Virus record (IMG/VR): IMGVR_UViG_3300025133_000038
Location: 1-64,000 of that record
Strand: one strand, 5' to 3'
Origin: a virus
Length of the DNA stretch: 64,000 bases
Positions 23,928 to 39,024 of this stretch are shown here, in pieces. The first letter of the stretch is position 1. Every line of letters begins with the position of its first letter. A program made the translations under genes and the position numbers. Below the pieces are notes generated by a model that was not told where the DNA came from, searched no databases, and saw nothing but the letters and a program-made list of their open reading frames with translations.

Positions 23928-24247
23928 GGGGATGAACTGGTATCGACTGACAATGAGAACAGATTATTTGCACGTAGTGGGTGATTCGAAGGGCCACTTA
24001 AAAAATCAAATCAACAACATTAACTGCAAACTTAAATGTAAGCGTAATGACAGGTGCCCTAGCTGGCACAAGCCGTTCCTTGACCGGAACAAAAACCCGT
24101 TCTTTAACCGGAACTTTCGCCCTAGCTGCGTAAGCCAAAAGCTGGACAGAGTGATGATAGTTGTCAATAACTTAAATTGACTAAACGTGTAGACGGTAAA
24201 CATAGTAATGTTGTGCAGCTACGAGGGTTCGACTCCCTCCATCTCCA
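23928..24247 (+). ncRNA. ssrA: tmRNA
   Basis: GGGGATG/CATCTCC-A acceptor with G3.U70; GAGGG-TTCGACT-CCCTC T arm; tag ORF 24026-24133 ending FALAA-stop. Confidence 0.95.
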
Positions 24248-24303
24248 CTTATGTTTCCCTCATCTCCACTTTTGGAGAATTTGGGAATTTTTTCCACAAC
24301 CCC

Positions 24304-24341: not shown

Positions 24342-24413
24342 GGCCCATTAGTCTAGTGGTTAGGACGCTAGCTTCTCAAGCTAGAATCAGGAGTTCAATT
24401 CTCCTATGGGCTA
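24342..24413 (+). tRNA. tRNA-Glu(CTC)
   Basis: Cloverleaf; CTAGC-TTCTCAA-GCTAG. Confidence 0.95.
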
Positions 24414-24439
24414 CTAAAACACTAAGTAAGAAAGCTAAA

Positions 24440-24643
24440 ATGAAGTACTACGTATCAAACATTAAACATAGCATCGTCCTAGATGCTGAGAGCAAACAGC
24501 TCGCCGCAGATAAGTTTGCAGGTATCCTGCACGCTCGCGGTATTGATGCGTCTGGACTCGTTGATGTTAATGAGAAGGGGTTTCCGAATCCCTATGCTTT
24601 TAACTATGATACGATTAACCTCGTAGAGATTAGCGCAGCTTAG
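24440..24643 (+). CDS. Hypothetical protein
   Basis: ORF after tRNA. Confidence 0.7.
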   Translation: MKYYVSNIKHSIVLDAESKQLAADKFAGILHARGIDASGLVDVNEKGFPNPYAFNYDTINLVEISAA

Positions 24644-24723
24644 TTGGTGACGCTTGAAAAATTTTATACTTTCTACCGTCCTAGATTAAACGAGACAAAT
24701 CCTGAGAAAATTTTTTGAACCCC

Positions 24724-24751
24724 TTGACAAATTGGAAATTTCATCTAAAAT
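24724..24751 (+). promoter_or_regulatory. sigma70-like promoter
   Basis: TTGACA-N16-TAAAAT. Confidence 0.75.
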
Positions 24752-24909
24752 GAAGAAGTCAGAACGAAAGCGAGTTCGACAGGAACGAAACTTGCGTAAG
24801 AACAAGAGAAGTATGGGGGCATTTGATGTTGACCCTGATGGTCGTAACGACAAGGAAGTTCGTAATGCTGATATTGAATATGCAGACGCTTTAGTAAGGG
24901 AAATTGAAG

Positions 24910-25179
24910 ATGACTATGCAGGCAAGGTATCTCGTTCGTCCAGACGATAGTATGATTTTTGAGTATGTTGAGGAATATGGTGTCTATCAGATAAGGAATG
25001 GTCCTACTGACCTAAAAGGTAATAGACCTAAGCCGTATGCTCACTTTACTTACGAAAACTTGACTGAGAACTATGATTTCTTTCCAATCTCAGTAGGTGA
25101 GTTCTCCTTTTGGGAGGAAAAGAATAAGAAGCATTATCAAGAAATGCAACAAGAGTTAAATAAGAAACACTATGGGTGA
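24910..25179 (+). CDS. Hypothetical protein
   Basis: ORF; start uncertain. Confidence 0.65.
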   Translation: MTMQARYLVRPDDSMIFEYVEEYGVYQIRNGPTDLKGNRPKPYAHFTYENLTENYDFFPISVGEFSFWEEKNKKHYQEMQQELNKKHYG

Positions 25180-25246
25180 GGTAGCTCAGTCCGGTAGAGC
25201 AGGGTCGCGCGGCCCGTGTGCGTTGGTTCAAATCCAACCCTTCCCA
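25174..25246 (+). ncRNA. tRNA-like RNA lacking an anticodon loop
   Basis: Canonical D arm (TAGCTCAG..GGTAGAGC) and T arm; anticodon stem GGGTC/GGCCC closed by 4-nt GCGC. Confidence 0.8.
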
Positions 25247-25454
25247 CTTTGATGGCCGAGGCATGGTTGTCATACTAAGAGTTTGAAGCTGCGCAGCACG
25301 AAGCACAACGGAGTTGCAACTCCTAGTAAGCTAAGTAAAGCACTTAGTAGAGGGTTCAAATCCCTTAGGCTTGTTTATAATATCCCGCTGGGGGATTACT
25401 GTTGAAAGACACCCCAAGAAATCCACGACGGGATTAAAAAATATCGTGGAAGAT

Positions 25455-25529
25455 GGTGCGGTAGCTCAGTCTGGTAGAGCGATTGGTTGAAGCCCAGTGA
25501 CAGCGGAGGTTCAAATCCTCCTCGTACCA
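25455..25529 (+). tRNA. tRNA-Phe(GAA)
   Basis: Cloverleaf; ATTGG-TTGAAGC-CCAGT. Confidence 0.95.
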
Positions 25530-25535
25530 CTTTAA

Positions 25536-25608
25536 CGCCTAGGGTCCAAATGGTAATGGAGTCGGATTGTCTATCCGAATGCTGCGGGTTCGATTCCCGT
25601 CTGGGTGG
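25536..25608 (+). tRNA. tRNA-Asp(GTC)
   Basis: TCGGA-TTGTCTA-TCCGA. Confidence 0.9.
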
Positions 25609-25639
25609 CTTACTAACGGTTTTTGCAGAAAGAGACATT

Positions 25640-25864
25640 ATGAATACGACATTTGTATTATGGATGATTGCTGCTAATCAAGCAGGTTGGGCTTTGGGGT
25701 ATACTCTATTAGCCAACGATATGATGCCTGAGATTCCTATTAAGAAGGTTGACTGGGCTGAGCGGGCTGCTAGACCACTATCTACCAATACGGGTGATAG
25801 CTGGACCAACCAAGCTAATGAGAAGTTAAATAAGATTGCGATGGTGAGAATCTATGATAACTAA
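25640..25864 (+). CDS. Hypothetical protein
   Basis: ORF between tRNAs. Confidence 0.6.
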   Translation: MNTTFVLWMIAANQAGWALGYTLLANDMMPEIPIKKVDWAERAARPLSTNTGDSWTNQANEKLNKIAMVRIYDN

Positions 25865-26063
25865 AGATATTGAAGATGCAGCAAAAGAACACTTAAGAAA
25901 ATATCCTAATTTTGATATTGAGTCTTTTCTTGAATGGGCTTTGAATAAAAAACGTAAGGGTTGGATGACACAGATGGTTAATAAGCATGGTGTTGACATC
26001 TCTTTCTTAAACAAGAAACGTAAAAGACAGAGAAGTTTCATTCGTTATGTTGAATCTTCTTGA
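25854..26063 (+). CDS. Hypothetical basic protein
   Basis: Coupled ORF. Confidence 0.6.
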   Translation: MITKDIEDAAKEHLRKYPNFDIESFLEWALNKKRKGWMTQMVNKHGVDISFLNKKRKRQRSFIRYVESS

Positions 26064-26068
26064 GATAC

Positions 26069-26141
26069 GCTCTAGGGTCCAAATGGTAATGGAGGCTGAT
26101 TGTCTATCAGCACGTTGCGGGTTCGACTCCCGTTTGGAGCG
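26069..26141 (+). tRNA. tRNA-Asp(GTC), second copy
   Basis: GCTGA-TTGTCTA-TCAGC. Confidence 0.9.
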
Positions 26142-26207
26142 CTAATGGTTCCGTAAGGAACCTCTTGGTTTGGGTGACGCTTCCAAGTAAAACAAAACGC
26201 GAAGCTA

Positions 26208-26293
26208 GGGAGGTATTCCACATGGGTGTCTGTAAAACACTTGGCCTTGTTGTATGTGGTGGTTGCCGGGGGGTTCAATTCCCTTACTTCCCA
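26208..26293 (+). tRNA. tRNA-Tyr(GTA), D-armless
   Basis: GGGAGGT/ACTTCCC; GGTGT-CTGTAAA-ACACT; long variable region; D region only 10 nt. Confidence 0.8.
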
Positions 26294-26297
26294 CTTT

Positions 26298-26392
26298 AGT
26301 GACGTTGGGATAGTCTGGTAATCCACCTGTCTTGGAAACAGGAGCCTACAAGCCGAACTTGTGGGTCGTCGGTTCGAATCCGACCGTCGCTA
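26298..26392 (+). tRNA. tRNA-Pro(TGG) with long variable arm
   Basis: CCTGT-CTTGGAA-ACAGG; 9-bp extra arm GCCTACAAG/CTTGTGGGT. Confidence 0.85.
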
Positions 26393-26394
26393 CT

Positions 26395-26618
26395 GCGGCT
26401 TTGCTGCCATTAGGATAATGGGTGAGGAGTATGAGGGAGAAGGTTTACCGCCGACTCCTGCAATCTACCCATGAATACGGTGGTGGGTGGTACAAAGTTG
26501 CTCGGTGGCTTTGCCGCATAAGTTAGTCTTAGTGACATAGGAAGGGTTGGATTTGCCGTCCAAGGTCAGTACTCTCACTAAGGGTTATTTCTTATGTGGG
26601 TGGCACATGGTCGCCACA
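26395..26618 (+). ncRNA. Structured intergenic RNA (two rod hairpins)
   Basis: GCGGCTTTG/CAAAGTTGC, ATGGGT/ACCCAT, AGGAGT/ACTCCT; CTTAGTGA/TCACTAAG. Confidence 0.5.
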
Positions 26619-26619
26619 T

Positions 26620-26691
26620 GGTCTGTAGGTGTAATGGTTGCATTGCGAGCTTTTAACTCGTTAGGACGGAGTTCGACTCTCCGGCGGACCA
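26620..26691 (+). tRNA. tRNA-Lys(TTT)
   Basis: GCGAG-CTTTTAA-CTCGT. Confidence 0.9.
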
Positions 26692-26705
26692 CTTAGGAGA
26701 ATATT

Positions 26706-26936
26706 ATGGATATATGGACACTCAATAAGGAAGAAACGGATAGGGTTCAGACCCTAGCTGAAAAAATGCTGGATGATAGGCGTTTGACGGGTGAAGAAAG
26801 AAGGCGTTTCTATGCAACCGCTATCTCCTTTGCTCTTTCTACCTTAAAGGGTAAGGATGTTGGGTTTAATCATGTCTTACTTAAAATGGAAATAGGGGAG
26901 CTACTCAATGCAAAGCAAACATGCTCACTGTCCTGA
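26706..26936 (+). CDS. Hypothetical protein
   Basis: AGGAG RBS. Confidence 0.75.
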   Translation: MDIWTLNKEETDRVQTLAEKMLDDRRLTGEERRRFYATAISFALSTLKGKDVGFNHVLLKMEIGELLNAKQTCSLS

Positions 26937-27105
26937 ACACATTACATATCCTGCCAATAAGATGCTTCCCAAGGAAGCCCTGGCGACAGAGACAAATAAC
27001 GAAGGAAGAATATTGCGTAGCCGTTCACAGGCAAGCAGTAAAGAAATAAAAAGGATTCACACTAGAAGGTCTAGGCGATTTCTAAAAGATAACTTAGACT
27101 ACTAA
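26908..27105 (+). CDS. Hypothetical basic protein
   Basis: GGGAG RBS. Confidence 0.55.
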   Translation: MQSKHAHCPEHITYPANKMLPKEALATETNNEGRILRSRSQASSKEIKRIHTRRSRRFLKDNLDY

Positions 27106-27319
27106 AACAGAAAGAGTTACTGTGTCATGCGAACTAAGAAGAGTAAATATCTCTCCACTTGGGAGCATATTCAGTTAGAATTTTGGAGTAAACTATTCAT
27201 ATGGTCGTGCAAGTCAAGAGTTCGCACTATATGCGTACCAGAAATAGTATGTAATTGGATTGACAAACAGGTATGGAAACAACTTAGAAAGATTCCTAAA
27301 TAAAAAGGTGCAACCTATT

Positions 27320-27598
27320 ATGTTAAAAAAACTATGGAACGATGAAATCGGCGGTATTATTTCAGCCGAGTATATTATGCTTAGCGGCATATTGGTGGCG
27401 GGGTTAGTGACTGGCTTGACAGGCGTTCGTACCGCTATGTTGAACGAGCTAGAGAATGTATCGAATGGGATTAGTTCCATCAATCAAAGCTACTATTATG
27501 ATGGTGTTGAGGGGCCTGGGGCAATGACTGCTGGTTCTTCCTACGAAGACACAAATAGTAATGAGAGATGTATTATTGTAGCTGAAATTAATGAGTGA
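27320..27598 (+). CDS. Flp family type IVb pilin (Planctomycete type)
   Basis: MLKKLWNDEIGG|IISAEY prepilin site with E+5, hydrophobic helix, EL..V..I..NQSY tail. Confidence 0.85.
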   Translation: MLKKLWNDEIGGIISAEYIMLSGILVAGLVTGLTGVRTAMLNELENVSNGISSINQSYYYDGVEGPGAMTAGSSYEDTNSNERCIIVAEINE

Positions 27599-28059
27599 TT
27601 TTGTAGTATACACATTTCCTGTAGGACGAGTACCCACAAGAAGTTGCACCTTGTGTTCTGATTGTGGGGGTGTCCTTTACTTTGATGAAGACCTTTATTG
27701 CAAGAATTGTGCTTTTCCAGAGAAGCTGAGGGAAGAGATTAGGGAGTTGTTGAATGACAAGAATGGGTAGTATCGGCTCAATAATGTATAGCTATTGTAA
27801 TAGCTGTAAGCATTGGTATAAGAGTGATGGTGGTTGTTCTAGGTGTGTTTACTTTTTGGAATTGAAAGAAGAGATTGGAAAGCTGTTAAATGGACATTAA
27901 GTTTGAGTATGATGACAATATTTTGGATACTATTAACAAAATCAATAAGGCCCTACATGAGCATAAGTTGCAAGTTGTCTTTATTGATGAGGAACGAGAT
28001 GATGGTATCATCGAAGGAAACATAGAAAAGAGAGAAGACATAGTCTTCGTATAAAGTAT

Positions 28060-28134
28060 GGGGGTGTAGCCCAACTGGAAAGAGGCATCACGCTTAGAAC
28101 GTGACCAGTGCAAGTTCGAGTCTTGTCACCCCTA
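28060..28134 (+). tRNA. tRNA-Leu(TAG) with short variable loop
   Basis: TCACG-CTTAGAA-CGTGA; 5-nt variable loop. Confidence 0.9.
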
Positions 28135-28138
28135 CTTG

Positions 28139-28211
28139 GCAGATATAGTATAATTTGGCAGTACCACGGTTTCGTACTCCGTAAGTTTCGGTTCGAGTCC
28201 GAATGTCTGCT
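28139..28211 (+). tRNA. tRNA-Thr(CGT)
   Basis: GCAGATA/TGTCTGC; loop TTCGTAC. Confidence 0.8.
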
Positions 28212-28227
28212 CTTACAAGGAATCCTT

Positions 28228-28599
28228 ATGAACGAAGATTATAAGATACCCGTTGAAGCTATGGTCAACGAGGAACTCCTATTAGAGGTAGCACTATTCG
28301 CTGCTACTACTAGAAGTAAAAATGTTAAGTTAGAAGGAGCAGAAGCCATAATAACTCGCTATGTTATGAACCAACTGCTCGATGAAATGACTGTTGATGA
28401 ATTGTTTTTAATGGACAAGCAAGTTATTGCAGATATGTGTAATGAGCTATTAGCAGATTATGCTATGACTAGCTTAGCTATGCTTGGATTACTAGATGCT
28501 GGTATTGATGAAAATGGTGATATTGAATATACGACAACTGAACTAGGGAAGGTTGTCAAAGAATACTCTGACAAACACCCGCTTAACGAGCAAGAGTAG
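28228..28599 (+). CDS. Hypothetical acidic protein
   Basis: AAGGA RBS. Confidence 0.75.
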   Translation: MNEDYKIPVEAMVNEELLLEVALFAATTRSKNVKLEGAEAIITRYVMNQLLDEMTVDELFLMDKQVIADMCNELLADYAMTSLAMLGLLDAGIDENGDIEYTTTELGKVVKEYSDKHPLNEQE

Positions 28600-28619
28600 T
28601 CTTGCAGGAGTAAGAGTTG

Positions 28620-28895
28620 ATGGTCTTGAAGTACGAAGATTACAAGGCTGGGGCTAAAGCCGCTAAAGTAGCCCATGAAAAGACTAGACTACAAAGAGTA
28701 AATGACACACAAGAGAAGATTGACGGCGTTTTGAAAAGACTGGGTAGATGTACCTTTAGTGTAGAACGCGAGATTGCTGAGGAAATCCACGATGCCTATA
28801 GGGTGGCGGGCTGGAAGGTTAGGGGCGAACACAGCTATGCTCCTGGCGACCAACTATTATTAGTTATAACACCAGTTGAGGACAAAAGAAGATGA
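28620..28895 (+). CDS. Hypothetical protein
   Basis: AGGAG RBS. Confidence 0.7.
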   Translation: MVLKYEDYKAGAKAAKVAHEKTRLQRVNDTQEKIDGVLKRLGRCTFSVEREIAEEIHDAYRVAGWKVRGEHSYAPGDQLLLVITPVEDKRR

Positions 28896-29187
28896 ATCAT
28901 ATTGGACCTACTATTGCGACCGTTGCTATTTGGGCTTCTGTAGCCATTTCAAGTATTTTTATTGGAGAGGCTGTTGTGGCGGTGTCTATATTCGCATTGT
29001 TCGCAACGATGACTATTTGGGGAGTAGCAACATGACAATGGCGTGTATATGTGGGGGAGTATTAGAGTGGACGGTGGTAATCGCCCTCATCACTATTATT
29101 TCTTCCCTGCTCGACAAATTTAGGATTAAACGCTTAAAATGTAGGTGTAAATGTAAGGATATTGGGGATATTTAAGTATCCCCTTGA

Positions 29188-29272
29188 TGTAGAGGGAGTA
29201 CGTTGGTGTACTGAGCGGACTGTTAATCCGTCGCCCGTTAAAAGGTCACAGGTTCGATTCCTGTCTCTACAG
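29188..29272 (+). tRNA. tRNA-Asn(GTT) with enlarged variable region
   Basis: TGTAGAG/CTCTACA; GCGGA-CTGTTAA-TCCGT; 16-nt variable region. Confidence 0.9.
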
Positions 29273-29299
29273 CTTTGTTAGATACAACTCTAAAGAAGT

Positions 29300-29310
29300 G
29301 GTGTATAATA
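29300..29310 (+). promoter_or_regulatory. GGTGTATAATA promoter without -35 (putative second/late class)
   Basis: Motif recurs near 23910, 41227, 47714 and 61707 ahead of transcription units. Confidence 0.55.
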
Positions 29311-29355
29311 TTTGTGTAATATTACGCCAAGTGAACTCTTTAGAGGACAAATAAA

Positions 29356-30093
29356 ATGAGGAAAACAGCTAAGATTGGGTTTTTCGCCCTATTAGCGGTG
29401 TTTATAACAGCACCTATCTTCGGGGCTATCACAGCGCCCGATAAGGTTGATGCTCATAAGCCGATTATTATTGAAGCATCTGATGGTGCTGACGTATACA
29501 TTTGGCATGTGCCTAAACCTGCAATCAGAATCGTAGTAGATGGCGGTCGCGGTCTACACGTATGGGCTCCTCCTGGTAAGTATGAGATTAGACTAACCAC
29601 CATTTCGGTTGATGTTCAAGTTGACCCTAATTGGAAGCCTGATGGTGAGAGTGTTCCAGACCTAAAGAAGAACATTCAATACGATGAGCATTTTGCTACT
29701 GTTGAAGTTGTTGGTTCTGGACCAGCTCCAAACCCTAACCCTAATCCAAATCCCAACCCTAATCCTGCTCCTTCTAATGCTTTCAAGCAAAACGTAGAAG
29801 CTGCACTAACTAAGGTTGATGCCGCTGGACTTACTTTTAAGAGTAAGGTTGCAGCTATTTATTCAAACATCGCTCAAGAGGCTGAAGCTCAGCCAGATGC
29901 TTGGGGCGTAGCAGATATGGTAAACCAAGCTAAGGTTCGCGTAACTGCAAAACTACCGAGTACTGCACTTAAGTCATGGTCAGGATTCTGGCCTGGGCTT
30001 GGTAAGTCATTTAAAGAACTAGGTTTAGATTCTACTGACCTCGATGGTCATATCGACGCCTTTAAACAAGTAGTAGAAGTTCTGGAGAACTAA
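29356..30093 (+). CDS. Secreted/virion protein with (PN)n linker
   Basis: Signal peptide; beta-rich domain; PNPNPNPNP linker; helical C-terminal domain. Confidence 0.8.
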   Translation: MRKTAKIGFFALLAVFITAPIFGAITAPDKVDAHKPIIIEASDGADVYIWHVPKPAIRIVVDGGRGLHVWAPPGKYEIRLTTISVDVQVDPNWKPDGESVPDLKKNIQYDEHFATVEVVGSGPAPNPNPNPNPNPNPAPSNAFKQNVEAALTKVDAAGLTFKSKVAAIYSNIAQEAEAQPDAWGVADMVNQAKVRVTAKLPSTALKSWSGFWPGLGKSFKELGLDSTDLDGHIDAFKQVVEVLEN

Positions 30094-30097
30094 TAAT

Positions 30098-30448
30098 ATG
30101 AGTATTGAAAAGTTCGCAGAGGAAGTCTGCGATACCTGTAACACAGAGAACTATGGTTCCATTACTGGAATTATGGCAATTATCGAAGTAATCATGGAGC
30201 TAATCCAAGGTTGTCAAGAAAACAGAAATACCTTTGTTCAGTCAGCAGCTAACCCTACTCGACTACAACAGGTTGGTCTAAGGATTCATGTTCGTAGAAC
30301 AATGGGTGTTCGTGGTCGTAAGAATGTTAAACGAGCAGCTCAGGCTATGATTGATAAAGCCGCAACAATGGATGAAGCAGCATTGGGTGCTATTCACGAC
30401 GAAGGTGTGGCAGCAATGAATCCAGCCGTTGATTACGACTTCGGATAA
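30098..30448 (+). CDS. Hypothetical protein
   Basis: In operon with peptidase. Confidence 0.8.
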   Translation: MSIEKFAEEVCDTCNTENYGSITGIMAIIEVIMELIQGCQENRNTFVQSAANPTRLQQVGLRIHVRRTMGVRGRKNVKRAAQAMIDKAATMDEAALGAIHDEGVAAMNPAVDYDFG

Positions 30449-30451
30449 ATC

Positions 30452-31429
30452 ATGCCAGTTTTTGATTATGACTTTACCCCGACTCCTAAACAGTTAACAG
30501 AGATTTACGACGGTGGTTTTAAGGGCGTTATCCATGATGCTGCATCTTATGCGGCATTAAGGACTGTTGCCCCTCGCTTCTATGATGTCTTTCCAGGCGC
30601 CAAGGGAGCAGGTAAGGGAAGAGTATCTCTTCCTTATAAGGCAGCTTTGACGCTTGACCCTGAATTTGGGGGCTATGAGAGCCAAACCACTGGTGACTGT
30701 GTTAGTCATTCCACGCGAAATGCTGGTATGATGGATTACTGTATTGATGCGATGTTCGGAGAAACAGAGTTCAAGGGACGCTTAGCCACAGAAAACATCT
30801 ATGGTTATCGTGGACATGGTGGGCAGGGAGCCAACTGTTCTCGTTTAGCACTGTATGTATCACAAGAAGGTCCAGGTGGATTCTTAGTAAGAGCAAAATA
30901 TGATGATGGCGGGAGAAATTCCGTTGACCTAAGCCGCTATAATAGCCGCACTGGTCACAACTGGGGTCGCCCAGGAACACCAAGTTGGCTTAATAAGATT
31001 GCGGCTAAGAACAAGGCTTTTAGCGTATTCTCGGTTAAGTCTTCTGACGAAGCAAGAGATGCGATAGCTTCTGGCTACGGCATCTCAATGTGTTCTGGAT
31101 ATGGCTTCAGGTCGAATAGAAATGAAGATGGCCTATGTGAACGCTCAGGTGGATGGAATCATGCTATGGCGTGGGTTGGTGTCGATGATACCGATTGGGC
31201 ACATCAAAAGTATGGTGGACCCCTATTTATGATTCAGAACTCTTGGGGTGAATGGAATAGTGGACCAAAAAGGCATGAACAGCCTGATGGCTCATTCTTC
31301 GTTCGACCTAAGATTTCATCTGCTATGATTAACGGTGGAGGTGGATATGTTATCTCCTCTGTGAGGGGTTACAATAGGGAGTTGACATATGATGTTACCT
31401 CTCAAGTCCTCGAATTGAGCAAGGCTTAA
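30452..31429 (+). CDS. Papain-like (C1) cysteine peptidase
   Basis: QTTGDCVS (Q/C), HAM (H), QNSWG (N) catalytic motifs. Confidence 0.85.
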   Translation: MPVFDYDFTPTPKQLTEIYDGGFKGVIHDAASYAALRTVAPRFYDVFPGAKGAGKGRVSLPYKAALTLDPEFGGYESQTTGDCVSHSTRNAGMMDYCIDAMFGETEFKGRLATENIYGYRGHGGQGANCSRLALYVSQEGPGGFLVRAKYDDGGRNSVDLSRYNSRTGHNWGRPGTPSWLNKIAAKNKAFSVFSVKSSDEARDAIASGYGISMCSGYGFRSNRNEDGLCERSGGWNHAMAWVGVDDTDWAHQKYGGPLFMIQNSWGEWNSGPKRHEQPDGSFFVRPKISSAMINGGGGYVISSVRGYNRELTYDVTSQVLELSKA

Positions 31430-31431
31430 AA

Positions 31432-31659
31432 ATGAAAAAGACCATTACTACATTAGCGTTTTTACTAGCTGTTGGCTTATCCTACGATATGTCACCTGTG
31501 TCATATAATATGGCTCCATCGGCTAATTACGATTTTGAGCCAGTAATAGTTGAAGAAGTCGAAGAAGTCAAGCCTGAACCAAAGGCTCCTGAAGTCCCCA
31601 AAAAGGCCACTGTTAAGACCACACAGAGCCGCCGAGGGTGGTTTAGGCGTAGGAGGTAG
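31432..31659 (+). CDS. Small exported protein with basic C-terminus
   Basis: Signal peptide; RRGWFRRRR end. Confidence 0.7.
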   Translation: MKKTITTLAFLLAVGLSYDMSPVSYNMAPSANYDFEPVIVEEVEEVKPEPKAPEVPKKATVKTTQSRRGWFRRRR

Positions 31660-31677
31660 ACAAATCCTTGAATCAAA

Positions 31678-31710
31678 GGGAGTCGCCTCACAGCGGCTCT
31701 CTTTTTTTTT
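31678..31710 (+). terminator. Rho-independent terminator
   Basis: GGGAGTCGC/GCGGCTCTC hairpin plus T9. Confidence 0.85.
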
Positions 31711-31730
31711 GGATTTATTTTCCACAGGGC

Positions 31731-31758
31731 TTGACATTTTGTATTTTAGGTGTAAGAT
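31731..31758 (+). promoter_or_regulatory. sigma70-like promoter
   Basis: TTGACA-N16-TAAGAT. Confidence 0.75.
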
Positions 31759-31771
31759 AATCAAAGACAAG

Positions 31772-31845
31772 CGGGAAGTGGCGAAGTTTGGCATCGCACT
31801 TGGTTTGGGACCAAGGGACCGCAGGTTCGAATCCTGTCTTTCCGA
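31772..31845 (+). tRNA. tRNA-Pro(TGG), canonical
   Basis: CTTGG-TTTGGGA-CCAAG. Confidence 0.95.
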
Positions 31846-31877
31846 CTTAATAAACTAGGACAATAAAGGAACAAGAA

Positions 31878-32240
31878 ATGGCAGATAAGAAGCAGGAAGT
31901 ACCAGTAGTACTGGTTACGATAACATCAGGTCAAACAATCGTTTGTCGAGCAAGAGCTATTACTGGTGGTGAGAGTAAACCCGTCAAGAGTATTGATTTG
32001 AATGCTACTCACTACAAGCTAGCTAATCCAGCGTTTATCGCTCAGGCTGGTGATGGTGGTTTGGGACTTGAGGCATGGCCCATGTTCTCGACTGAAGACC
32101 TTGAGGAAGTTGTTGTTAAGACACAAGATGTGATTTGTATTGTGGAAGCACACTCATCACTAAGTAAAGGCTATAAGGCTTTTGCAGATGAAGAGACGGT
32201 TATCACTCCTAAGAAACCTGGATTGATATTACCTAAGTAG
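31878..32240 (+). CDS. Hypothetical protein
   Basis: AAGGA RBS. Confidence 0.8.
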   Translation: MADKKQEVPVVLVTITSGQTIVCRARAITGGESKPVKSIDLNATHYKLANPAFIAQAGDGGLGLEAWPMFSTEDLEEVVVKTQDVICIVEAHSSLSKGYKAFADEETVITPKKPGLILPK

Positions 32241-32256
32241 GCTAACGCCTACGTTT

Positions 32257-32328
32257 GGCCCATTCGTCTACTGGAAGGACTGTTAGTTTTTCAAGCTAGC
32301 AACGAGAGTTCGAATCTCTCATGGGCTA
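32257..32328 (+). tRNA. tRNA-Glu(TTC)
   Basis: TTAGT-TTTTCAA-GCTAG. Confidence 0.9.
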
Positions 32329-32332
32329 CTAT

Positions 32333-32409
32333 GGCGGTGTTGAGGTTGTTGGCAGCCTTGCCTGGTTTTCACCCAGGAGATAGCGTGGGTTCGATTCCCA
32401 TCATCGTCA
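32333..32409 (+). tRNA. tRNA-Glu(TTC), second divergent copy
   Basis: CCTGG-TTTTCAC-CCAGG. Confidence 0.85.
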
Positions 32410-32585
32410 CTAAGGAGATATGATTATGTATGTTGATGAAAGGTATTGCGAACACTGTCAAGAGAATACTATGCAAAAGTGTGTTGACAGTGAACATGAA
32501 AGAGATAGTTCAGCAGACTGGGAGAAGTGCCTAACTTGTGGTTGGGAGTATCACGGTATGACTGGAAAAAGAGAATATTATGATT

Positions 32586-32656
32586 GGTCCTCGCGCTGAG
32601 GTTCAGCGAGTATCCCTGATAAGGACACTGGCAGGTTTCAATTACCTGGGGGACTA
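32586..32656 (+). tRNA. tRNA-Ile(GAT), atypical
   Basis: GGTCCTC/GGGGACT; loop CTGATAA; CAGGT-TTCAATT-ACCTG. Confidence 0.75.
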
Positions 32657-32831
32657 CTTTGATTACGAGGAGTGGTTGAGAGAGGCGACGGCGAACGAAA
32701 AGCATACCGAAAGGTGGAGGCCGTGTGTAGTAATCAATAATATTGGATTCAAAGTAAGCTAAGTAGTATAACTAAGTAAGAAAGTATGTATCAGTCTAAT
32801 TTACTGTTACTTTTCTTACAAGGAGAATGCT

Positions 32832-33140
32832 ATGAAGGTTTACAATGTTGGTGGTGATTGTTTAGAAGGTGGGTGGGAGTGGGACCATGTTGTTGCTGAA
32901 AAGTATGACTGGTTTGTATATTCATACAGTGACAATGGGTATGATGGAGATGGAGAAGCAGTAGGTTACAGGGATGGAATCCTATACTTCTACAATCTAT
33001 GTCATTGTTCTTGTTACGGTCCACTAGACGGTGGTGGGTCTGCTACTTCGGTAGAAGACTGGAAGACCAGCGTTGACATCCATGATGTGGATACTCGTGA
33101 TGGAGACATCCGAGCGAAGCTGATTGAGTTGCTAAGCTAA
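32832..33140 (+). CDS. Conserved phage hypothetical protein
   Basis: GYDGDG..HCSCYGP motif; AAGGAG RBS. Confidence 0.8.
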   Translation: MKVYNVGGDCLEGGWEWDHVVAEKYDWFVYSYSDNGYDGDGEAVGYRDGILYFYNLCHCSCYGPLDGGGSATSVEDWKTSVDIHDVDTRDGDIRAKLIELLS

Positions 33141-33184
33141 CACTATGAGGCCCCACTGAGCCAGCCTGGCAAATCAGTGAACAT

Positions 33185-33253
33185 GGGGGTACTTCATGGG
33201 TGAGCGCTGACTTTTGCAAAGTCGGACGGCGGGTTCGATTCCCGATACCTCCA
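33185..33253 (+). tRNA. tRNA-Ala(TGC), short D arm
   Basis: GGGGGTA/TACCTCC with G3.U70; loop TTTGCAA. Confidence 0.85.
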
Positions 33254-33268
33254 CTAAAGGAGATTAAT

Positions 33269-33544
33269 ATGAGCGAAGTACTTATACTTCAGTATATTGA
33301 ATACGTTGACGATGTAGAAGAACGAAATGAAATCATTGGGGTTTACTCTGATTTTGAAAAGGTTCAAGACGCCATTGTCTCAACTGTTGGAGAGGGACAG
33401 TATTCTCTATATAGAATGAGAGCTATGGAGTGGGACGAAGATGGTAATAGGGTGGCAGAGTTTGTTAAGGCAGATAGAAGAGTCTGTAAAGTGTTTTGGG
33501 CATCCGAAATGAAGATAGACCAGAAACCGAGTATAAAAATATGA
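33269..33544 (+). CDS. Hypothetical protein
   Basis: AAGGAG RBS. Confidence 0.7.
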   Translation: MSEVLILQYIEYVDDVEERNEIIGVYSDFEKVQDAIVSTVGEGQYSLYRMRAMEWDEDGNRVAEFVKADRRVCKVFWASEMKIDQKPSIKI

Positions 33545-33756
33545 GCGAGCAAGAAGATTGGGAAATTCCCACTGAGGTAGCAGCAGAGTGCTGGGAGGCT
33601 GGAGCATCAATGCAAAAGTCTTTTGAAGCGAGTCCTTTGCTAAATGCTGAGGGTAAAGAGAAGTTGAAGGAAGAGATTCGTAAAACCATTGAGATGTTTG
33701 GGAGCCATGCTCCTGTGAGACTATCTCATTGGATTGACTACTTGAATGGAGTTTAA
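33541..33756 (+). CDS. Hypothetical protein
   Basis: ATGA coupling. Confidence 0.7.
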   Translation: MSEQEDWEIPTEVAAECWEAGASMQKSFEASPLLNAEGKEKLKEEIRKTIEMFGSHAPVRLSHWIDYLNGV

Positions 33757-33761
33757 GATAT

Positions 33762-33831
33762 AGGTCGCTCCTCCTGGGAGAGGCTTTCGGTTCCAACCCG
33801 AAAAGACGGGGTTCGACTCCTCGGCGGCCTG
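33762..33831 (+). tRNA. tRNA-Trp(CCA), short D arm
   Basis: AGGTCGC/GCGGCCT; TTCGG-TTCCAAC-CCGAA. Confidence 0.85.
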
Positions 33832-33927
33832 CTTTGCCTCGCGCGGCAATTGTCCTAAGTAAGACACTAAACTACTAGGTGAAGACCAATACCTGTCGAG
33901 AGTAATTAACTCGACGAAGAGATAACC

Positions 33928-33999
33928 TATACTATAGTGTAATTGGAAACATACTTGGTGGAGAACCAGGAGATGCCAGTTCGAGTCAGGCTAGTAAAG
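33928..33999 (+). tRNA. Degenerate tRNA (nominal Leu GAG, G33), possible pseudogene
   Basis: D and T arms present; mismatches in acceptor and T stems; loop TGGAGAA. Confidence 0.5.
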
Positions 34000-34014
34000 T
34001 TTCTCAGGTCTTAT

Positions 34015-34088
34015 GGGTTGCAGGTGTTATTGGTAGCATTCCAGACTCTTAATCTGAGAGGTCGCGGGTTCGAATCCCCGGCAACCCA
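34015..34088 (+). tRNA. tRNA-Lys(CTT)
   Basis: GGGTTGC/GCAACCC; loop CTCTTAA. Confidence 0.9.
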
Positions 34089-34482
34089 CTTACTTTAATT
34101 AAAGGAAAAATTATGTATTGGTTACTAAATCTATTGATGCCTGTTTGTGGAGAATGTAGGTCTTTGAAGATGGTTGATATTTCGCCTACTTCGGAGTTTA
34201 GGAAGTTCTTCCTTTGTAAGAGTTGTGGCAGTACTAAGAACTATAGGGCAAGATAATGAGCGGATGGGATAAATACGATTTTGCTATGGATAAATTCCAT
34301 CTTTGGATGTTAGAAGAATTTTGCGATATTTTGCTTGAAGAGCATATAGATGAAATCGCCCTAAAGGCAGTTAAGATATTTAGAGAAGAATGTGAACTTC
34401 AAAATAAGGAGACTATTGAGCCGAAACGCTAGGTGAATGCCCACCAAGGTCGGAGCGTAATAATATAAAAACTGACAAACAT

Positions 34483-34553
34483 GCGTGTGTCGTATAATGG
34501 TATTACCTAAGGTTTCCAACCTTATGACGGGAGTTCGATTCTCCCCACACGCT
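34483..34553 (+). tRNA. tRNA-Gly(TCC)
   Basis: TAAGG-TTTCCAA-CCTTA. Confidence 0.95.
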
Positions 34554-34554
34554 C

Positions 34555-34657
34555 TTGAAGTAGTATGGGACCGTAAGGCCATACCTCATCGCCCCTCATC
34601 TAATAGGTGATACATGTGTCGATAAGCCGGATATGGGTATAGCGTAAGATACTTCAA
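34555..34657 (+). ncRNA. Multi-branched structured RNA between tRNAs
   Basis: TTGAAGTA/TACTTCAA closing stem with three internal hairpins. Confidence 0.5.
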
Positions 34658-34661
34658 ACCA

Positions 34662-34733
34662 GGGCCATTATTTCAATGGTTAGAATATCTGCTTGACGTG
34701 CAGATGATAAAGGTTCGATTCCTTTATGGCCCA
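34662..34733 (+). tRNA. tRNA-Val(GAC)
   Basis: TCTGC-TTGACGT-GCAGA. Confidence 0.95.
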
Positions 34734-34737
34734 CTAT

Positions 34738-34809
34738 AGCTTCCTAGTGTAATGGATAGCACGCAAGTTTCCTAAACTTTTAGTAGGAGTTCGAATCTCC
34801 TGGGAGCTA
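34738..34809 (+). tRNA. tRNA-Arg(CCT)
   Basis: Loop TTCCTAA; AGCTTCC/GGGAGCT. Confidence 0.9.
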
Positions 34810-34977
34810 CTTGATGGCAACCTATGTATGTAGTAAGTGTGGAGCTTCTTTTGAGTCAAAAGCAAAGAAGCAACCAAAATGTGTTTTATGTAAGGCTTGT
34901 AAGCCTAGATTAGAAAAAGGTAAGAAACCACCTAAAAAACCTGGCGGTGGCTGACGTTAACATAAGGAGTCACGGTC

Positions 34978-35232
34978 GTGGCTAAAGCTAAAGTAAAATA
35001 CAGACAGTGTACGTTAGAGTTAACGGTTGACCAAGGAACAGTAGTTAAAGATGTTGCCTGGATACCCTCTAAGTATGCAAAATTGAACGGATTCGTAAAA
35101 ATCCAAAAGAATGGGGTTTGGGTCAATGGATGGAAGGTTACTGGTGTCGGCTCACATGAAATCGACGAAGTTCCCGATATTAACAAGCAAATTCGCGGTC
35201 ATAGAAAAAACACTGGAGATTCGCTACGATGA
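34978..35232 (+). CDS. Hypothetical protein
   Basis: AAGGAG RBS with GTG start. Confidence 0.75.
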   Translation: MAKAKVKYRQCTLELTVDQGTVVKDVAWIPSKYAKLNGFVKIQKNGVWVNGWKVTGVGSHEIDEVPDINKQIRGHRKNTGDSLR

Positions 35233-35675
35233 GTAAAGATTCTAAGATTGATTTTATTAGAAAGCTGTCTGAGTCTAAAATAGCAAAAACAAAAGTTGAT
35301 GCAGCGAAAGGGTGGGTTGTTAGAAGGGGCGAATTAGCAAAGAAGTGGTTTATCGACCAAGCTAAGAAGGCGAAAACGGCGTGGACTACTGTGGTGGCGG
35401 TTGCTGCCCTATTAGGGTATAATCTTAGTATTACGCCTATTGAGGAACCAGTGATTGTGGAGCCCGCGAAGCCCTCTGCTGTCATTAATAAAGAGGTTGA
35501 GGAGATAGTTGAGTTGGTTGAGGAGATTAAGGAAGAGGTGAAGCCAGAAGTGCAAGAACCAGAAATTAAGCCTGAAACCAAAGCTGTCCGAATCAAGGAT
35601 GGCGGCACAACGGTCATTATCAACGGAAAAGAGTACCAAAATGGACAAGTCGAAAAAGACGAAGCAGACTACTAA
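35229..35675 (+). CDS. Single-pass membrane protein
   Basis: TM segment and E/P-rich linker. Confidence 0.75.
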   Translation: MSKDSKIDFIRKLSESKIAKTKVDAAKGWVVRRGELAKKWFIDQAKKAKTAWTTVVAVAALLGYNLSITPIEEPVIVEPAKPSAVINKEVEEIVELVEEIKEEVKPEVQEPEIKPETKAVRIKDGGTTVIINGKEYQNGQVEKDEADY

Positions 35676-35685
35676 GTAGTCAAAT

Positions 35686-35757
35686 GCGCCTGTCGTATAG
35701 TGGTTATTATGGAACATTGCCAATGTTCAGACAGCAGTTCGATTCTGCTCAGGCGCA
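35686..35757 (+). tRNA. tRNA-Gly(GCC)
   Basis: GAACA-TTGCCAA-TGTTC. Confidence 0.95.
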
Positions 35758-35759
35758 CT

Positions 35760-36455
35760 ATGAAGACAATAGCTATAACACTACACAAGAGAGCTGATTA
35801 CACTAAACAGGTATTAGACGCCCTCTCCTCTTGCGAGGGAATTGAAGACTATCATGTCATTATGTCTATAGACGGATATGACGCAGATGTGACTAATGAG
35901 GCAAATGCCTTTTCTTCCTGCAAGACTAAAGAAGTGTTAAATCACGAGATTTACGGATGTAGCCTAAATACCTACTTTGTGCTAGATAGGGCATTTTCCA
36001 AATCGGACTATGTTATCCATATTGAGGATGACACTGTTCCTTCGGTTGATGCTCTCCGTTACTTTGAGTGGGGCTATCAGCATATGCTGAATAGGGAGAT
36101 ATTCTCCATAGGTGGATATAACAGAGAAGGTACTATTGACAGTTCTGCCTCTGAGCTAAATACAGCAGAGGGTTTTATCTGTTGGGGTTGGGCGACTTGG
36201 AAGAATAGATGGGAGTGGGTAAAGTTTAACCTAAACCACTATCCAGACCTTTCATGGGCTGTTCGAGTTAATCATACTGTAAATACTAAGAGGATGAAAC
36301 ATATTTTCCCTGATGTTTCACGAATACAGAATGTTGGTGCCAGAAACGGCGTTCACATAACTGAAGAAGAACATGCTGATATTCATCACGTTAAACATTG
36401 GATGGGTGATAGAAAGCCATATTTTGGGGACTATTTACTTAAAAGTGGTCACTAA
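35760..36455 (+). CDS. GT-A fold glycosyltransferase
   Basis: SIDG, IEDD, CWGWATWKNRW, PDVSRIQNVG motifs. Confidence 0.85.
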   Translation: MKTIAITLHKRADYTKQVLDALSSCEGIEDYHVIMSIDGYDADVTNEANAFSSCKTKEVLNHEIYGCSLNTYFVLDRAFSKSDYVIHIEDDTVPSVDALRYFEWGYQHMLNREIFSIGGYNREGTIDSSASELNTAEGFICWGWATWKNRWEWVKFNLNHYPDLSWAVRVNHTVNTKRMKHIFPDVSRIQNVGARNGVHITEEEHADIHHVKHWMGDRKPYFGDYLLKSGH

Positions 36456-36550
36456 CTCTGAAATGTCCGAAAAATTTTTGCCCTTTTAGTGATTTTACCT
36501 AAAAGTGGTCGGTAGCTTCTGAAAGTCCCGAAAAAATTTTCACCTCTTAG
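36434..36550. repeat. Imperfect 60-bp tandem duplication of promoter-upstream sequence
   Basis: TTTACYTAAAAGTGGTC...CTGAAA..CCGAAAAATTTT at 36434 and 36494. Confidence 0.8.
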
Positions 36551-36552
36551 GG

Positions 36553-36580
36553 TTGACAGGACGAGATTTTCCTCTATAAT
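36553..36580 (+). promoter_or_regulatory. sigma70-like promoter
   Basis: TTGACA-N16-TATAAT. Confidence 0.85.
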
Positions 36581-36618
36581 GGGGGAATGGGAAACGAGAA
36601 CCTTTAAGGATTTTATTA

Positions 36619-36843
36619 ATGAGACCTGACTTAACGAGAAAAGAAAAGATTAAGTGTGCCATAGGAGCAGTAATGCTTATTTTTGGGGGCGTTGGCTTAC
36701 TAGGAATGGCAGTTCTTTATTCTGAAATAGTAACTCTTATCTTTGCATTTATTGTCCTTGCTTTTGCTCTTATAGCTTTTACTTACGTTGTATATGATTG
36801 TCTTTGTATGCGAATAGAAAACAAAAAGAGGTATAAAAAATGA
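36619..36843 (+). CDS. Two-TM membrane protein
   Basis: Hydrophobic segments; RBS. Confidence 0.75.
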   Translation: MRPDLTRKEKIKCAIGAVMLIFGGVGLLGMAVLYSEIVTLIFAFIVLAFALIAFTYVVYDCLCMRIENKKRYKK

Positions 36844-36911
36844 ACACAGTTTTGAAAGGGTACTCTGATGATTAGGAGGTAACTACTAATCTAACTTAAA
36901 GGAGTACTATT

Positions 36912-37523
36912 ATGAAAAACCGCAATGGTGATTTTCATCACCGTAGGCCGAAAACTACAGCGGAACGAAGAGCAAACCAGGATGTTGACCATAAGGCATA
37001 TGTCCGAGGGAAGAGAACACCAAGAATGCTTCCCAACTCTTACGATGACCTTTGTTCTAATCCACCTCGAAAGAGCTGGAAGTGGCAACAAAGACGTAAG
37101 AAACAGTACCATGAGGCACAAGTCACTAAGCACAGAGTAGAGTTCTCTGCTGATGAGTGGGAGGAAACATGGGCTGTAGAAGAATACCTTCGTAAAAATA
37201 ACATTCGTTATCATATCGAAGAGACTAGGGGAGACCCTATTCACCACAGAAGAGAGATACAAGAAAGAGTTGGTGTTGGACACCCTCGCCCAAAGTATCA
37301 CTTCTACTGGGGTAGAGACGAAAATAAATGTCTTATTAGAGTAAGAGGCCATCAAATAGGATGGGAATACTGGGAATATAAATGGGTTGGCACTGGTAAG
37401 TTCAAAGAGTGGACGACCAGAGACACAATCTCAGTTGAAGTATCCTGGTGGTATGATAAAGATATTGGCTTGGACTATATCCTAGCCAAAGTACAGCACT
37501 ATCGCTATCGTCGATGGTACTAG
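36912..37523 (+). CDS. Hypothetical basic protein
   Basis: AAGGAG RBS; LPNSYDD..KSWK..RKKQY motif. Confidence 0.8.
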   Translation: MKNRNGDFHHRRPKTTAERRANQDVDHKAYVRGKRTPRMLPNSYDDLCSNPPRKSWKWQQRRKKQYHEAQVTKHRVEFSADEWEETWAVEEYLRKNNIRYHIEETRGDPIHHRREIQERVGVGHPRPKYHFYWGRDENKCLIRVRGHQIGWEYWEYKWVGTGKFKEWTTRDTISVEVSWWYDKDIGLDYILAKVQHYRYRRWY

Positions 37524-37530
37524 TACGGAT

Positions 37531-37609
37531 GAGGTTAGAGACTAATGCTTCATGGTGGAGTGCCGATTTGCAACGTCGGTGTCAAGCGGTTCGATTCCGT
37601 CTTTCCTCT
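37531..37609 (+). tRNA. tRNA-Cys(GCA)-like, degenerate acceptor
   Basis: GCCGAT-TTGCAAC-GTCGGT; GGTTCGATTCC; U discriminator; mismatched acceptor. Confidence 0.55.
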
Positions 37610-37679
37610 TTATGCGAGAGAGTAGACTGCCTGAAAGGGTGAATGAGGATTCTCACTTAATGTGACTCGCATATTTAAT

Positions 37680-39019: not shown

Positions 39020-39024
39020 TCGCT

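Follow-up and report, generated by a model that had tools for sequence, protein, structure and literature searches.

Why would a phage carry a transfer-messenger RNA (tmRNA) that appends a tag of 35 residues, and does the added length serve a purpose? We took up this question at a locus in the IMG/VR virus record IMGVR_UViG_3300025133_000038, that of an uncultured marine phage; the record comprises 119,350 bases and is rated 79% complete. Its first 64 kb form the stretch of DNA analyzed here (the window), to whose numbering positions refer unless the record is named. The tmRNA gene lies on the plus strand at 23928..24247. A preliminary description of the locus had proposed that the tag was built by internal duplication and that, together with a ClpP protease encoded in the same window, it formed a phage-customized circuit of ribosome rescue and proteolysis. 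Our analysis leads to a different account, which we hold to be probably right: a working phage tmRNA, part of a translation-maintenance package, whose long tag arose by a 63-nucleotide (nt) insertion and acts as a tolerated spacer ahead of the degradation signal (degron).

A one-piece tmRNA gene with a 35-codon frame

The gene is a phage tmRNA, as it had been described, and of the one-piece type. ARAGORN calls it at 23928-24248, and the Rfam model RF00023 matches 23928-24250 with 86.7 bits against a cut-off of 47 (E 3.1e-32, model positions 1-374), a match reproduced when the whole record was searched. The gene extends from the 5' G to the discriminator A at 24247. Its acceptor stem, read from the sequence, pairs 23928-23934 (GGGGAUG) with 24240-24246 (CAUCUCC) over 7 bp and includes a G3:U pair. 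The Rfam alignment places the T-arm of the transfer RNA (tRNA)-like domain (GAGGG UUCGACU CCCUC) at 24223..24239 and, with high posterior probability, pseudoknot 1 (GUGG/CCAC and UGAUU/AAUCA) at 23977..24008, both on the plus strand; a 17-nt single-stranded leader ending UUAACU follows pseudoknot 1. The 3' CCA is not encoded, the discriminator being followed by CTT, whereas the relatives described below do encode it. Membership nevertheless stands because CCA is not required, the 3' position of tmRNAs being given as ‘not always encoding CCA’ in a figure legend of PMC11915505.

Beyond the tag, the gene is reduced. The pseudoknot domain (24134..24174, plus strand) has about 41 nt against 106 positions in the profile of the family, some 65 nt shorter than that of the relatives, and folds into one hairpin only (24163-24168 with 24176-24181). 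Pseudoknots 2-4 are absent as such: Rfam posterior probabilities are low here and family profile positions 132-237 are unmatched in the window. The number of pseudoknots is described as varying among accepted tmRNAs (PMC1168896). As a separate observation, an exact 9-nt direct repeat, AACTTAAAT, occurs at 24029-24037, at the start of the tag frame, and at 24169-24177, in the loop of the single hairpin that the reduced domain forms; it may be due to chance.

The tag frame (24026..24133, plus strand) runs from GCA at 24026-24028 through 35 codons to the stop TAA at 24131-24133, on the Rfam register and by translation. It translates to ANLNVSVMTGALAGTSRSLTGTKTRSLTGTFALAA and ends FALAA-TAA, confirming the length and ALAA ending assigned to it before. 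The remaining two frames of this region are full of stops, and the stop codon used lies in the loop of helix 5, in which 24122-24127 pairs with 24139-24144.

Translation most likely resumes at GCA 24026, judging from sequence comparison. ARAGORN instead chooses GCC 24056, 10 codons later in the unchanged frame, which would leave 25 residues. We favor GCA 24026 because of the Rfam register, its check on two relatives, the U/A determinants, the position in the gene and the ANLNVS start. The Rfam consensus AAUAAuU-GCaAAC aligns to ACAUUAACU-GCAAAC at 24026 with top posterior probability, and the same register agrees with the ARAGORN resume codon in relative L069 and yields the sole sensible one in L084. 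GCA 24026 has U at -5 and A at -4, while GCC 24056 has C at -5 and lies within a hairpin stem; U85 and A86 are named as resume determinants in PMC1168896. Relatives share the context, with TTTAAAC or TTTAACT before the codon, and their resume codons occupy gene positions 86-96 in all ARAGORN-called cases, compared with 99 for GCA and 129 for the codon of ARAGORN. The first six residues, ANLNVS, resemble ANDNVS of L069, L086 and L099. Finally, the family profile aligns continuously across the resume site, GCC 24056 aligning instead to the end of the family tag. The frame check with ARAGORN and Infernal that had been recommended thus upholds the earlier placement of the resume codon after TAACT, Rfam and the relatives agreeing on it; the downstream start of ARAGORN is judged less likely.

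A 63-nt insertion relative to short-tagged relatives

The 5' 20-mer of the gene, GGGGATGAACTGGTATCGAC, occurs in five viral contigs and 23 metagenome loci, two of the latter being identical to two of the former. No match was found in 185,579 bacterial species genomes, and the degenerate pattern AN(D/N)NVxFDYALAA-stop had no match in this collection either. ARAGORN made one-piece calls in all five viral loci and in 17 of the 23 metagenome loci. In 21 of these 22 calls, the tag measures 13-14 residues (for example, ANDNVSFDYALAA), the exception being L090 with 20. Tag types comprise ANDNV(A/G/S/T/E)FDYALAA, ANDNVALDYALAA, ANNNVAFDYALAA, ANDNSVNFDYALAA and ANTNTEFDS(A/V)ALAA. Among the six metagenome loci lacking a one-piece call, Rfam detects a tmRNA in L080, L082, L084 and L102, that of L082 being truncated where its contig stops; in L085 the gene is present over just 22 nt, and the call for L088 is permuted. 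L084 combines a 33-residue tag with a post-stop part of full length (186 nt).

The window tmRNA resembles this family of uncultured marine viruses (L065-L069 and L080-L101) in its first 21 nt, which are identical, in the layout of the tRNA-like domain, helix 2 and pseudoknot 1, in the TTAAAC/TTAACT context and in a tag that starts A-N-x-N-V/S and ends ALAA. It differs in that the relatives have 13-14-residue tags, encode CCA and possess a pseudoknot domain about 65 nt longer. The comparison with related phage tags proposed in the preliminary description therefore sets a longer window tag against relatives mostly at 13-14 residues, and the insert makes the acidic tag of the family basic. The RIIA protein of the window is absent from the family-carrying phages (0/5 records).

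One of the metagenome loci deserves separate mention. The tmRNA of L102 (metagenome locus, minus strand, 176-620) has high GC content, scores 109.8 bits with Rfam and receives no ARAGORN call. Read by eye, its frame from GCC gives ANVNNVSTPD, an in-frame TAG, LNDSSIEAFMGSIESEQLVAAA and a stop. This would correspond either to a short tag without degron or to readthrough of the TAG, the latter suggesting stop-codon recoding.

A profile built from 17 family sequences aligns to the window gene in three pieces. Profile positions 1-126 match gene positions 1-138, through the resume site and ending on the first copy of GCCCTAGCTG; positions 113-131 match again at gene positions 188-206, covering a second copy and the stop; and positions 238-310 match gene positions 248-322 (E-values of 7.5e-12 for the 5' part and 4.5e-10 for the 3' part). 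Both GCCCTAGCTG copies, at 24056 and 24119 and thus 63 nt apart, align to the same profile positions, those of the ALAA codons of the family. The first tag-end copy (24056..24065, plus strand, profile positions 115-126) reads A-L-A-G with no stop after it, and the second (24119..24133, plus strand, profile positions 113-131) reads A-L-A-A-TAA and supplies the working stop. This motif had been noted before as repeated. Taken alone, the repeat is marginal, with some exact 10-mer repeat present in 4.6% of shuffles; the profile alignment backs it.

The sequence between the two tag-end copies has no counterpart in the family profile. It includes a tandem duplication (24070..24114, plus strand) with units at 24070-24090 and 24094-24114, a period of 24 nt (8 codons) and 86% identity, which encodes SRSLTGTKTRSLTGT. 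The 18-mers CCGTTCCTTGACCGGAAC at 24073 and CCGTTCTTTAACCGGAAC at 24097, picked out earlier as duplicated, are the cores of a 21-nt repeat with 18/21 identical positions, a level within 40 nt that none of 2,000 dinucleotide shuffles of the gene reached. Each unit does form a small hairpin of 5 bp, as had been suggested (-6.3 and -3.7 kcal/mol), but the tag region taken as a whole is no more stably folded than its shuffles (z -0.13).

Because the family tag end is matched twice, 63 nt apart, we interpret the growth of the tag as a 21-codon (63-nt) in-frame insertion relative to the relatives, with the 24-nt tandem duplication inside it. Internal duplication thus contributes to the tag, and its origin is better described as an insertion between two tag-end copies. 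Taking out one 63-nt period leaves a frame of 14 codons (ANLNVSVMTG then ALAA), as is usual in the family, and the periods of 63 and 24 nt are both divisible by 3. The frame exceeds that of relatives by 63-66 nt, and the post-stop part is shorter (117 nt versus 175-251 nt); the total of 323 nt is near the 307-313 nt of the shortest relatives.

Two possible origins of the inserted sequence were rejected. A MAFFT alignment had hinted at pseudoknot 2 of the relatives as a source; aligned locally to the post-tag regions of 20 members, the 49-nt insert reached z 3.25 at best (a 10-nt match in L084; p 0.013 without correction for the 20 comparisons), with most z values <2. Nor is the hairpin unit a dispersed repeat, as the 119-kb record contains just the two tag sites and one 3-mismatch chance match at 98332 on the minus strand. 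In the viral collection, a degenerate 18-mer recovered three loci and a tag-start 18-mer five, none of the eight with a tmRNA detectable by ARAGORN or Rfam.

Occurrence and conservation in other sequencing runs

Runs containing the tmRNA stretch are labelled marine metagenome, and four were compared (X3, X4, X6 and X11; three marine metagenomes and one coded organism). An X4 contig covers 24007-24485 and X3 contigs cover 23869-24341, each with 0 differences, while an X11 contig covers 24049-24199 with one difference (24144). The long frame is real and no assembly quirk because contigs of four other runs carry it.

The fourth run, X6, contributed a 7,565-nt contig from a diverged relative; between 23916 and 24700, it departs from the window by 41 substitutions and 34 gap letters. 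Within the tmRNA, 27 of the 28 listed substitutions fall in 23928-23973 and 24134-24250. In the 160 nt of 23974-24133, the sole listed substitution is 24121 C>G, a synonymous change from GCC to GCG, and pseudoknot 1 is without any listed change. Outside the conserved frame, the tmRNA differs at about one site in six. To place the X6 changes in the structure, base pairs were assigned manually from the structure line of the Rfam alignment. Three double changes keep their pairs (23953/24211, 23973/24187 and 24224/24238, the last in the T-arm with 24224 A>C together with 24238 T>G), and 24241 A>G converts a U-A pair into U-G. Because these double changes keep pairs, we take the tmRNA to be under structural selection in both the window and the X6 lineages. 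Pseudoknot 1 and the whole long frame would, on this comparison, be either strongly constrained or recently exchanged between lineages.

A ClpP-like gene that is more likely a capsid protease

The preliminary description had linked the tag to a phage ClpP at 60393. An open reading frame (ORF) for a ClpP-family (S14) protease is indeed present at 60393..61073 on the plus strand and matches Pfam PF00574 (E 6.7e-25, 88.5 bits, cut-off 20.2), the sole ClpP-type model it passed. It falls far below every curated ClpP cut-off: TIGR00493 clpP gave 40.8 bits against 308.6, and the top ClpP model, NF009205, 64.4 against 228. The top NCBIfam match is the ClpP-related head-maturation protease NF045542 (76.7 bits, also below its cut-off of 120) and the top PHROG is phrog_94 (1.8e-30). 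At what we take to be the catalytic triad positions in solved chains, Ser (AGSM) and His (MIHE) are in place, with Glu in the place of Asp in each of the two alignments shown, and the first 44 residues fall outside the alignment to ClpP.

Relatives of this protein were found in ten viral loci, one 99% identical and nine at 37-40%. In L113 and L117 (37-38% identity), the gene is directly upstream of the large terminase, in both loci as annotated; L109 and L112 show a similar ORF-size pattern and nothing more. In the window, the ORF is flanked by thymidylate synthase and a DeoC-like gene and lies 36 kb away from the tmRNA, and no terminase homologue was found in the record. No partner unfoldase emerged from the record either, with no ClpX match at E up to 1 and ClpA outside the search. 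A weak ClpP-like match occurred in only one of the five records with family tmRNAs. From these comparisons, the product is more likely a head-maturation (capsid) protease than a ClpP partner of the tmRNA.

Two further observations belong here. The 297-residue neighbor of the ClpP-like ORF (61794-62687) matched nothing in Pfam, PHROGs or NCBIfam; in the Atlas, it belongs to unnamed viral clusters and has a poor model (pLDDT 0.38, a predicted-confidence score). In record G007, where a ClpP-like gene is beside the terminase, locus L118 (954-1165) gives a sub-threshold tmRNA match of 40.5 bits (cut-off 47). It shows a 5' acceptor strand, pseudoknot 1 and AEPSFALAA-stop, then a terminator-like hairpin, with no 3' tRNA-like half visible, and may be a truncated or split tmRNA gene.

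Comparison with known tmRNAs

The window tag had been regarded as exceptional in length. It does reach the top of the range given in PMC8012679 (8 to 35 residues, 35 being the upper bound), with 10 reported as the commonest length (PMC11915505) and an mRNA-like domain of 48-126 nt (PMC1168896). Other viral tmRNAs, however, repeatedly have tags of 24-33 residues. Among phages, tmRNAs have been reported for Bxz1-like mycobacteriophages and phage G (PMC4131195) and for huge phages (PMC7162821), and PMC9004378 counts ssrA in 402 of 18,146 phage genomes.

Escherichia coli SsrA has 10 codons versus 35 in the window gene, four pseudoknots versus one clear one and an encoded CCA. The two agree, as far as PMC1168896 and PMC8012679 describe the E. 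coli molecule (tag ANDENYALAA), in a GCA resume codon with U at -5 and A at -4, an AN start, an ALAA end, the stop in the helix-5 loop and the G3:U alanine identity.

Mycobacterium phage Bxz1 (NC_004687, 100059-100495) likewise has a one-piece tmRNA in a tRNA array with a long tag, ATDTDATVTDAEIEAFFAEEAAALV, of 25 residues as confirmed on NC_004687. Unlike the window tag, that of Bxz1 is acidic, with ALV at its end; the host of Bxz1 is an actinobacterium, and a search of the phage collection with the window tmRNA showed no sequence similarity. Long phage tags were thus already on record, and the length of the window tag is less exceptional than assumed. Closer in habitat are the tmRNAs of marine myophages, namely Melnitz and pelagiphages, for which a role in sustaining hijacked translation or in amino acid recycling has been suggested (PMC9004378). 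These are circularly permuted two-piece molecules with short tags, some with a glutamine riboswitch, while the window gene is a standard one-piece type.

A wider view came from 53 viral loci sharing the 3' 26-mer of the window gene, for which ARAGORN returned 15 one-piece calls, 29 permuted calls and nine without a call. Ten of the 15 one-piece tags have 24-31 residues. Loci L014, L023-L026, L033, L034, L038, L040, L042 and L084 resemble the window in having tags of 24-33 residues on large viral contigs, often beside tRNAs. Their tags differ in being of unrelated sequence and mostly acidic, several ending ELV, LAV or VTA, and no internal duplication was noted in them by eye. Altogether, tags of 24-35 residues appear in at least five unrelated viral tmRNA lineages in addition to Bxz1. 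A literature search, short of full texts, found no paper treating long phage tmRNA tags as its topic.

A proposed origin and function and their alternatives

Starting from the observed gene, frame, insertion relative to kin and recurrence in several samples, we envisage the following course of events. A lineage with an ordinary 13-14-codon tag would have gained the 63-nt in-frame insertion between two tag-end copies. The tmRNA is probably transcribed with upstream genes, and its 3' CCA would be added post-transcriptionally by the CCA-adding enzyme of the phage or the host, the phage enzyme being a candidate. Alanine charging would proceed through the G3:U pair, with host SmpB as the presumed partner. 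At a stalled ribosome, translation would resume at GCA 24026, the ribosome would append (A)ANLNVSVMTGALAGTSRSLTGTKTRSLTGTFALAA and release would follow at TAA 24131. The unchanged C-terminal ALAA would then deliver the product to the host proteases that act on ssrA tags. Most economically, the 21 extra residues, which are basic and rich in Ser, Thr and Gly, may be read as a tolerated, presumably neutral spacer upstream of the degron. The setting is one of translation maintenance, with 35 tRNAs, a CCA-adding enzyme, an RNA ligase and a polynucleotide-kinase-like phosphatase.

Several results weigh against this account. The near-perfect identity of 23974-24133 in X6 exceeds what a neutral spacer would lead one to expect and suggests selection or recent exchange; the X6 counts, for their part, cover the changes listed, and some of three more substitutions and seven indels could lie within the frame. 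On the Rfam register, no fewer than two X6 changes (23955 with 24209; 24218) would disrupt base pairing. The pseudoknot domain is strongly reduced, and ARAGORN, as described, prefers another resume codon. Among the runs searched, no RNA run containing the tmRNA stretch is listed. Compatibility with the host machinery is assumed, SmpB being absent from the record.

The constrained frame could mean that the insertion was kept for the RNA rather than the peptide, an alternative that we consider unlikely, if worth keeping in view. Here, the 63 nt and three small hairpins would offset the ~65 nt lost with pseudoknots 2-4, so that the interstrand loop of helix 2 stays long or stable enough for the RNA to function on the ribosome, and the residues would be a by-product that needs only an open frame and ALAA. 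Pseudoknots 2-4 are dispensable in E. coli. The total of 323 nt lies near that of the shortest relatives despite the 117-nt post-stop part, most of profile positions 132-237 has no equivalent in the window, the X6 frame is conserved at the nucleotide level including synonymous sites and the C-to-T difference between the repeat units preserves the hairpin as a G-U pair. Against it, the hairpins are weak, with the tag region at z -0.13 versus shuffles, and long tags do not generally trade off against pseudoknots because L084 has both its 33-codon tag and a full-length 186-nt post-stop part. That the 21-residue insert is a selected functional module, part of a wider, hitherto undescribed phage habit of lengthening and rewriting tmRNA tags, strikes us as rather doubtful; the long tags of several unrelated viral lineages and of Bxz1 speak for the habit, and the idea is kept alive because the whole frame is conserved in the X6 lineage while about one in six sites of the flanking tmRNA differ. 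If it were true, the basic, Ser/Thr-rich SRSLTGTKTRSLTGT between the N-terminal adaptor-type part and ALAA would change the fate of tagged proteins, possibly by shifting the choice of adaptor or protease, by slowing release and so keeping host proteases occupied or by providing a modification site, and the insert would also restore RNA length lost with the pseudoknots.

The remaining alternatives fare less well. Resumption at GCC 24056, giving the 25-residue tag ALAGTSRSLTGTKTRSLTGTFALAA, is the call of ARAGORN itself and uses the same, equally open frame, but the hairpin stem, the C at -5, gene position 129 against 86-96 in all relatives, the alignment of this codon to the family tag end and the Rfam register at 24026 make it improbable. 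A non-tagging RNA that acts by its tRNA-like domain, for instance by titrating host SmpB, an activity reported of the DS6A mini-tmRNA, with the frame as a drifting relic, has a precedent in a phage form consisting of the tRNA-like domain alone that inhibits tmRNA (PMC4131195, PMC11915505). The reduced pseudoknot domain, missing CCA and atypical frame would fit it, yet 35 codons stay open across the insertion with both repeat periods multiples of 3, ALAA and the stop in the helix-5 loop are kept and the frame is the best-conserved part of the gene in the X6 relative, its sole listed change being synonymous; we regard such a relic as very improbable. No better placed is the customized rescue and proteolysis circuit, in which the Ser/Thr/Arg-rich tag redirects proteins to the protease at 60393 or alters adaptor use. 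Its attractions are a Clp protease domain that retains the catalytic Ser and His, the location of that gene among nucleotide-metabolism genes rather than beside recognizable head genes, and an insert that parts the N-terminal segment from the retained ALAA degron and turns an acidic family tag basic. On the other side stand the head-maturation protease as the top curated match (76.7 bits, compared with 40.8 versus 308.6 for TIGR00493), relatives directly upstream of the large terminase in L113 and L117, Glu at the catalytic Asp position, the unaligned N-terminal 44 residues, the lack of ClpX and SmpB matches in the record, the 36-kb distance and the single weak ClpP-like match among five family records. 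This proposal of the preliminary description did not hold up, and we would be surprised to see it return. Our preference thus stays with a working tmRNA whose insertion is tolerated as a spacer.

Genomic setting

The gene content of the record appears to be that of a large lytic-type phage. PHROG and annotation searches identified rIIA and rIIB in the record, which also encodes a clamp loader, RNA ligase, DNA ligase, a polynucleotide-kinase-like phosphatase (profile searches), thymidylate synthase, ribonucleotide reductase, PhoH, a UvsX-like recombinase and a DnaE-like polymerase interrupted by HNH endonuclease genes. Among GenBank phages, there is no close relative of the tmRNA or of 20000-30000, and the viral tmRNAs L024, L034 and L069 likewise lack close relatives there. 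The top isolate phage matches of the polymerase are ~33% identical. The DnaE-like gene at record 81366-86903 (L063 367-5904) is split into two ORFs of 626 and 553 residues, with an HNH/homing endonuclease gene and an exonuclease-like ORF between them, and further homing endonuclease genes are scattered in the replication module.

Downstream of the tmRNA, ARAGORN predicts 35 tRNA genes (24342..51811), bringing its total in the window to 36 genes, one tmRNA and then 35 tRNAs, all on the plus strand; Rfam detects 23 tRNAs at gathering score. A consensus promoter scan located a near-perfect promoter-like TTGACA-16-TATGAT ahead of the first tRNA (24304-24331) and no site directly upstream of the tmRNA. 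Between tmRNA and promoter, a terminator-like nested hairpin with a T-run occupies 24255..24293 on the plus strand (-14.3 kcal/mol, z -2.2). Its 5' arm approximates a copy of the tmRNA 3' end, with CATCTCCACTT at 24240 and 24261, and about 15 nt of this stretch are missing from the X6 relative. The last 11 nt of the tmRNA plus three more (CATCTCCACTTATG) reappear 21 nt downstream as CATCTCCACTTTTG (24240-24274), a repeat that could be a recombination remnant at the tmRNA 3' end.

The CCA-adding tRNA nucleotidyltransferase is represented by a head domain at 40189..40875 on the plus strand (PHROG 24229, 4.6e-52); against NCBIfam NF009814, it scores 147.7 bits with a cut-off of 290, over model positions 23-210 of 396. 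SmpB and ClpX had no match in the 119-kb record. Some tRNA genes are of unusual size: tRNA-Tyr and tRNA-Pro(tgg) at 26199-26294 and 26298-26393 measure 96 nt each and are not class II types, and tRNA-Arg(acg) at 37685-37750 has only 66 nt. The array also includes tRNA-Ile(tat), and an Rfam tRNA at 25175-25246 is missing from the ARAGORN list.

Directly upstream of the tmRNA, window positions 20720-23557 encode a NeuB-family sialic-acid-type synthase (E 4.7e-72), a cytidylyltransferase and a methyltransferase, and several glycosyltransferases are located elsewhere (53374-54450 and record 87930-94935). Such a gene set suggests synthesis or modification of a nonulosonic-acid sugar by the phage. 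The protein at 22847-23557, used as a query, retrieved no related loci.

Implications for phage tmRNAs

The window gene has a 35-codon tag at the upper edge of the known range and, as its sequence relationships indicate, belongs to a phage-only tmRNA lineage in which the long tag is coupled with a shrunken pseudoknot domain. To our knowledge, the phage tmRNAs described so far await functional testing, and the benefit that a phage draws from a tag of its own is yet to be demonstrated. The Clp-family gene illustrates a related caution: among such genes in phages, capsid proteases outnumber partners of ssrA tags, which corrects an attractive but unsupported idea. With viral tags of 24-33 residues recurring, a systematic survey of phage versus bacterial tag lengths seems worthwhile. 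The locus itself offers a natural comparison, a family with ordinary tags and one member at 35 residues whose insertion can be delimited to the base. It would allow one to ask whether tag length or spacing ahead of ALAA affects degradation and whether frame length compensates for the loss of pseudoknots.

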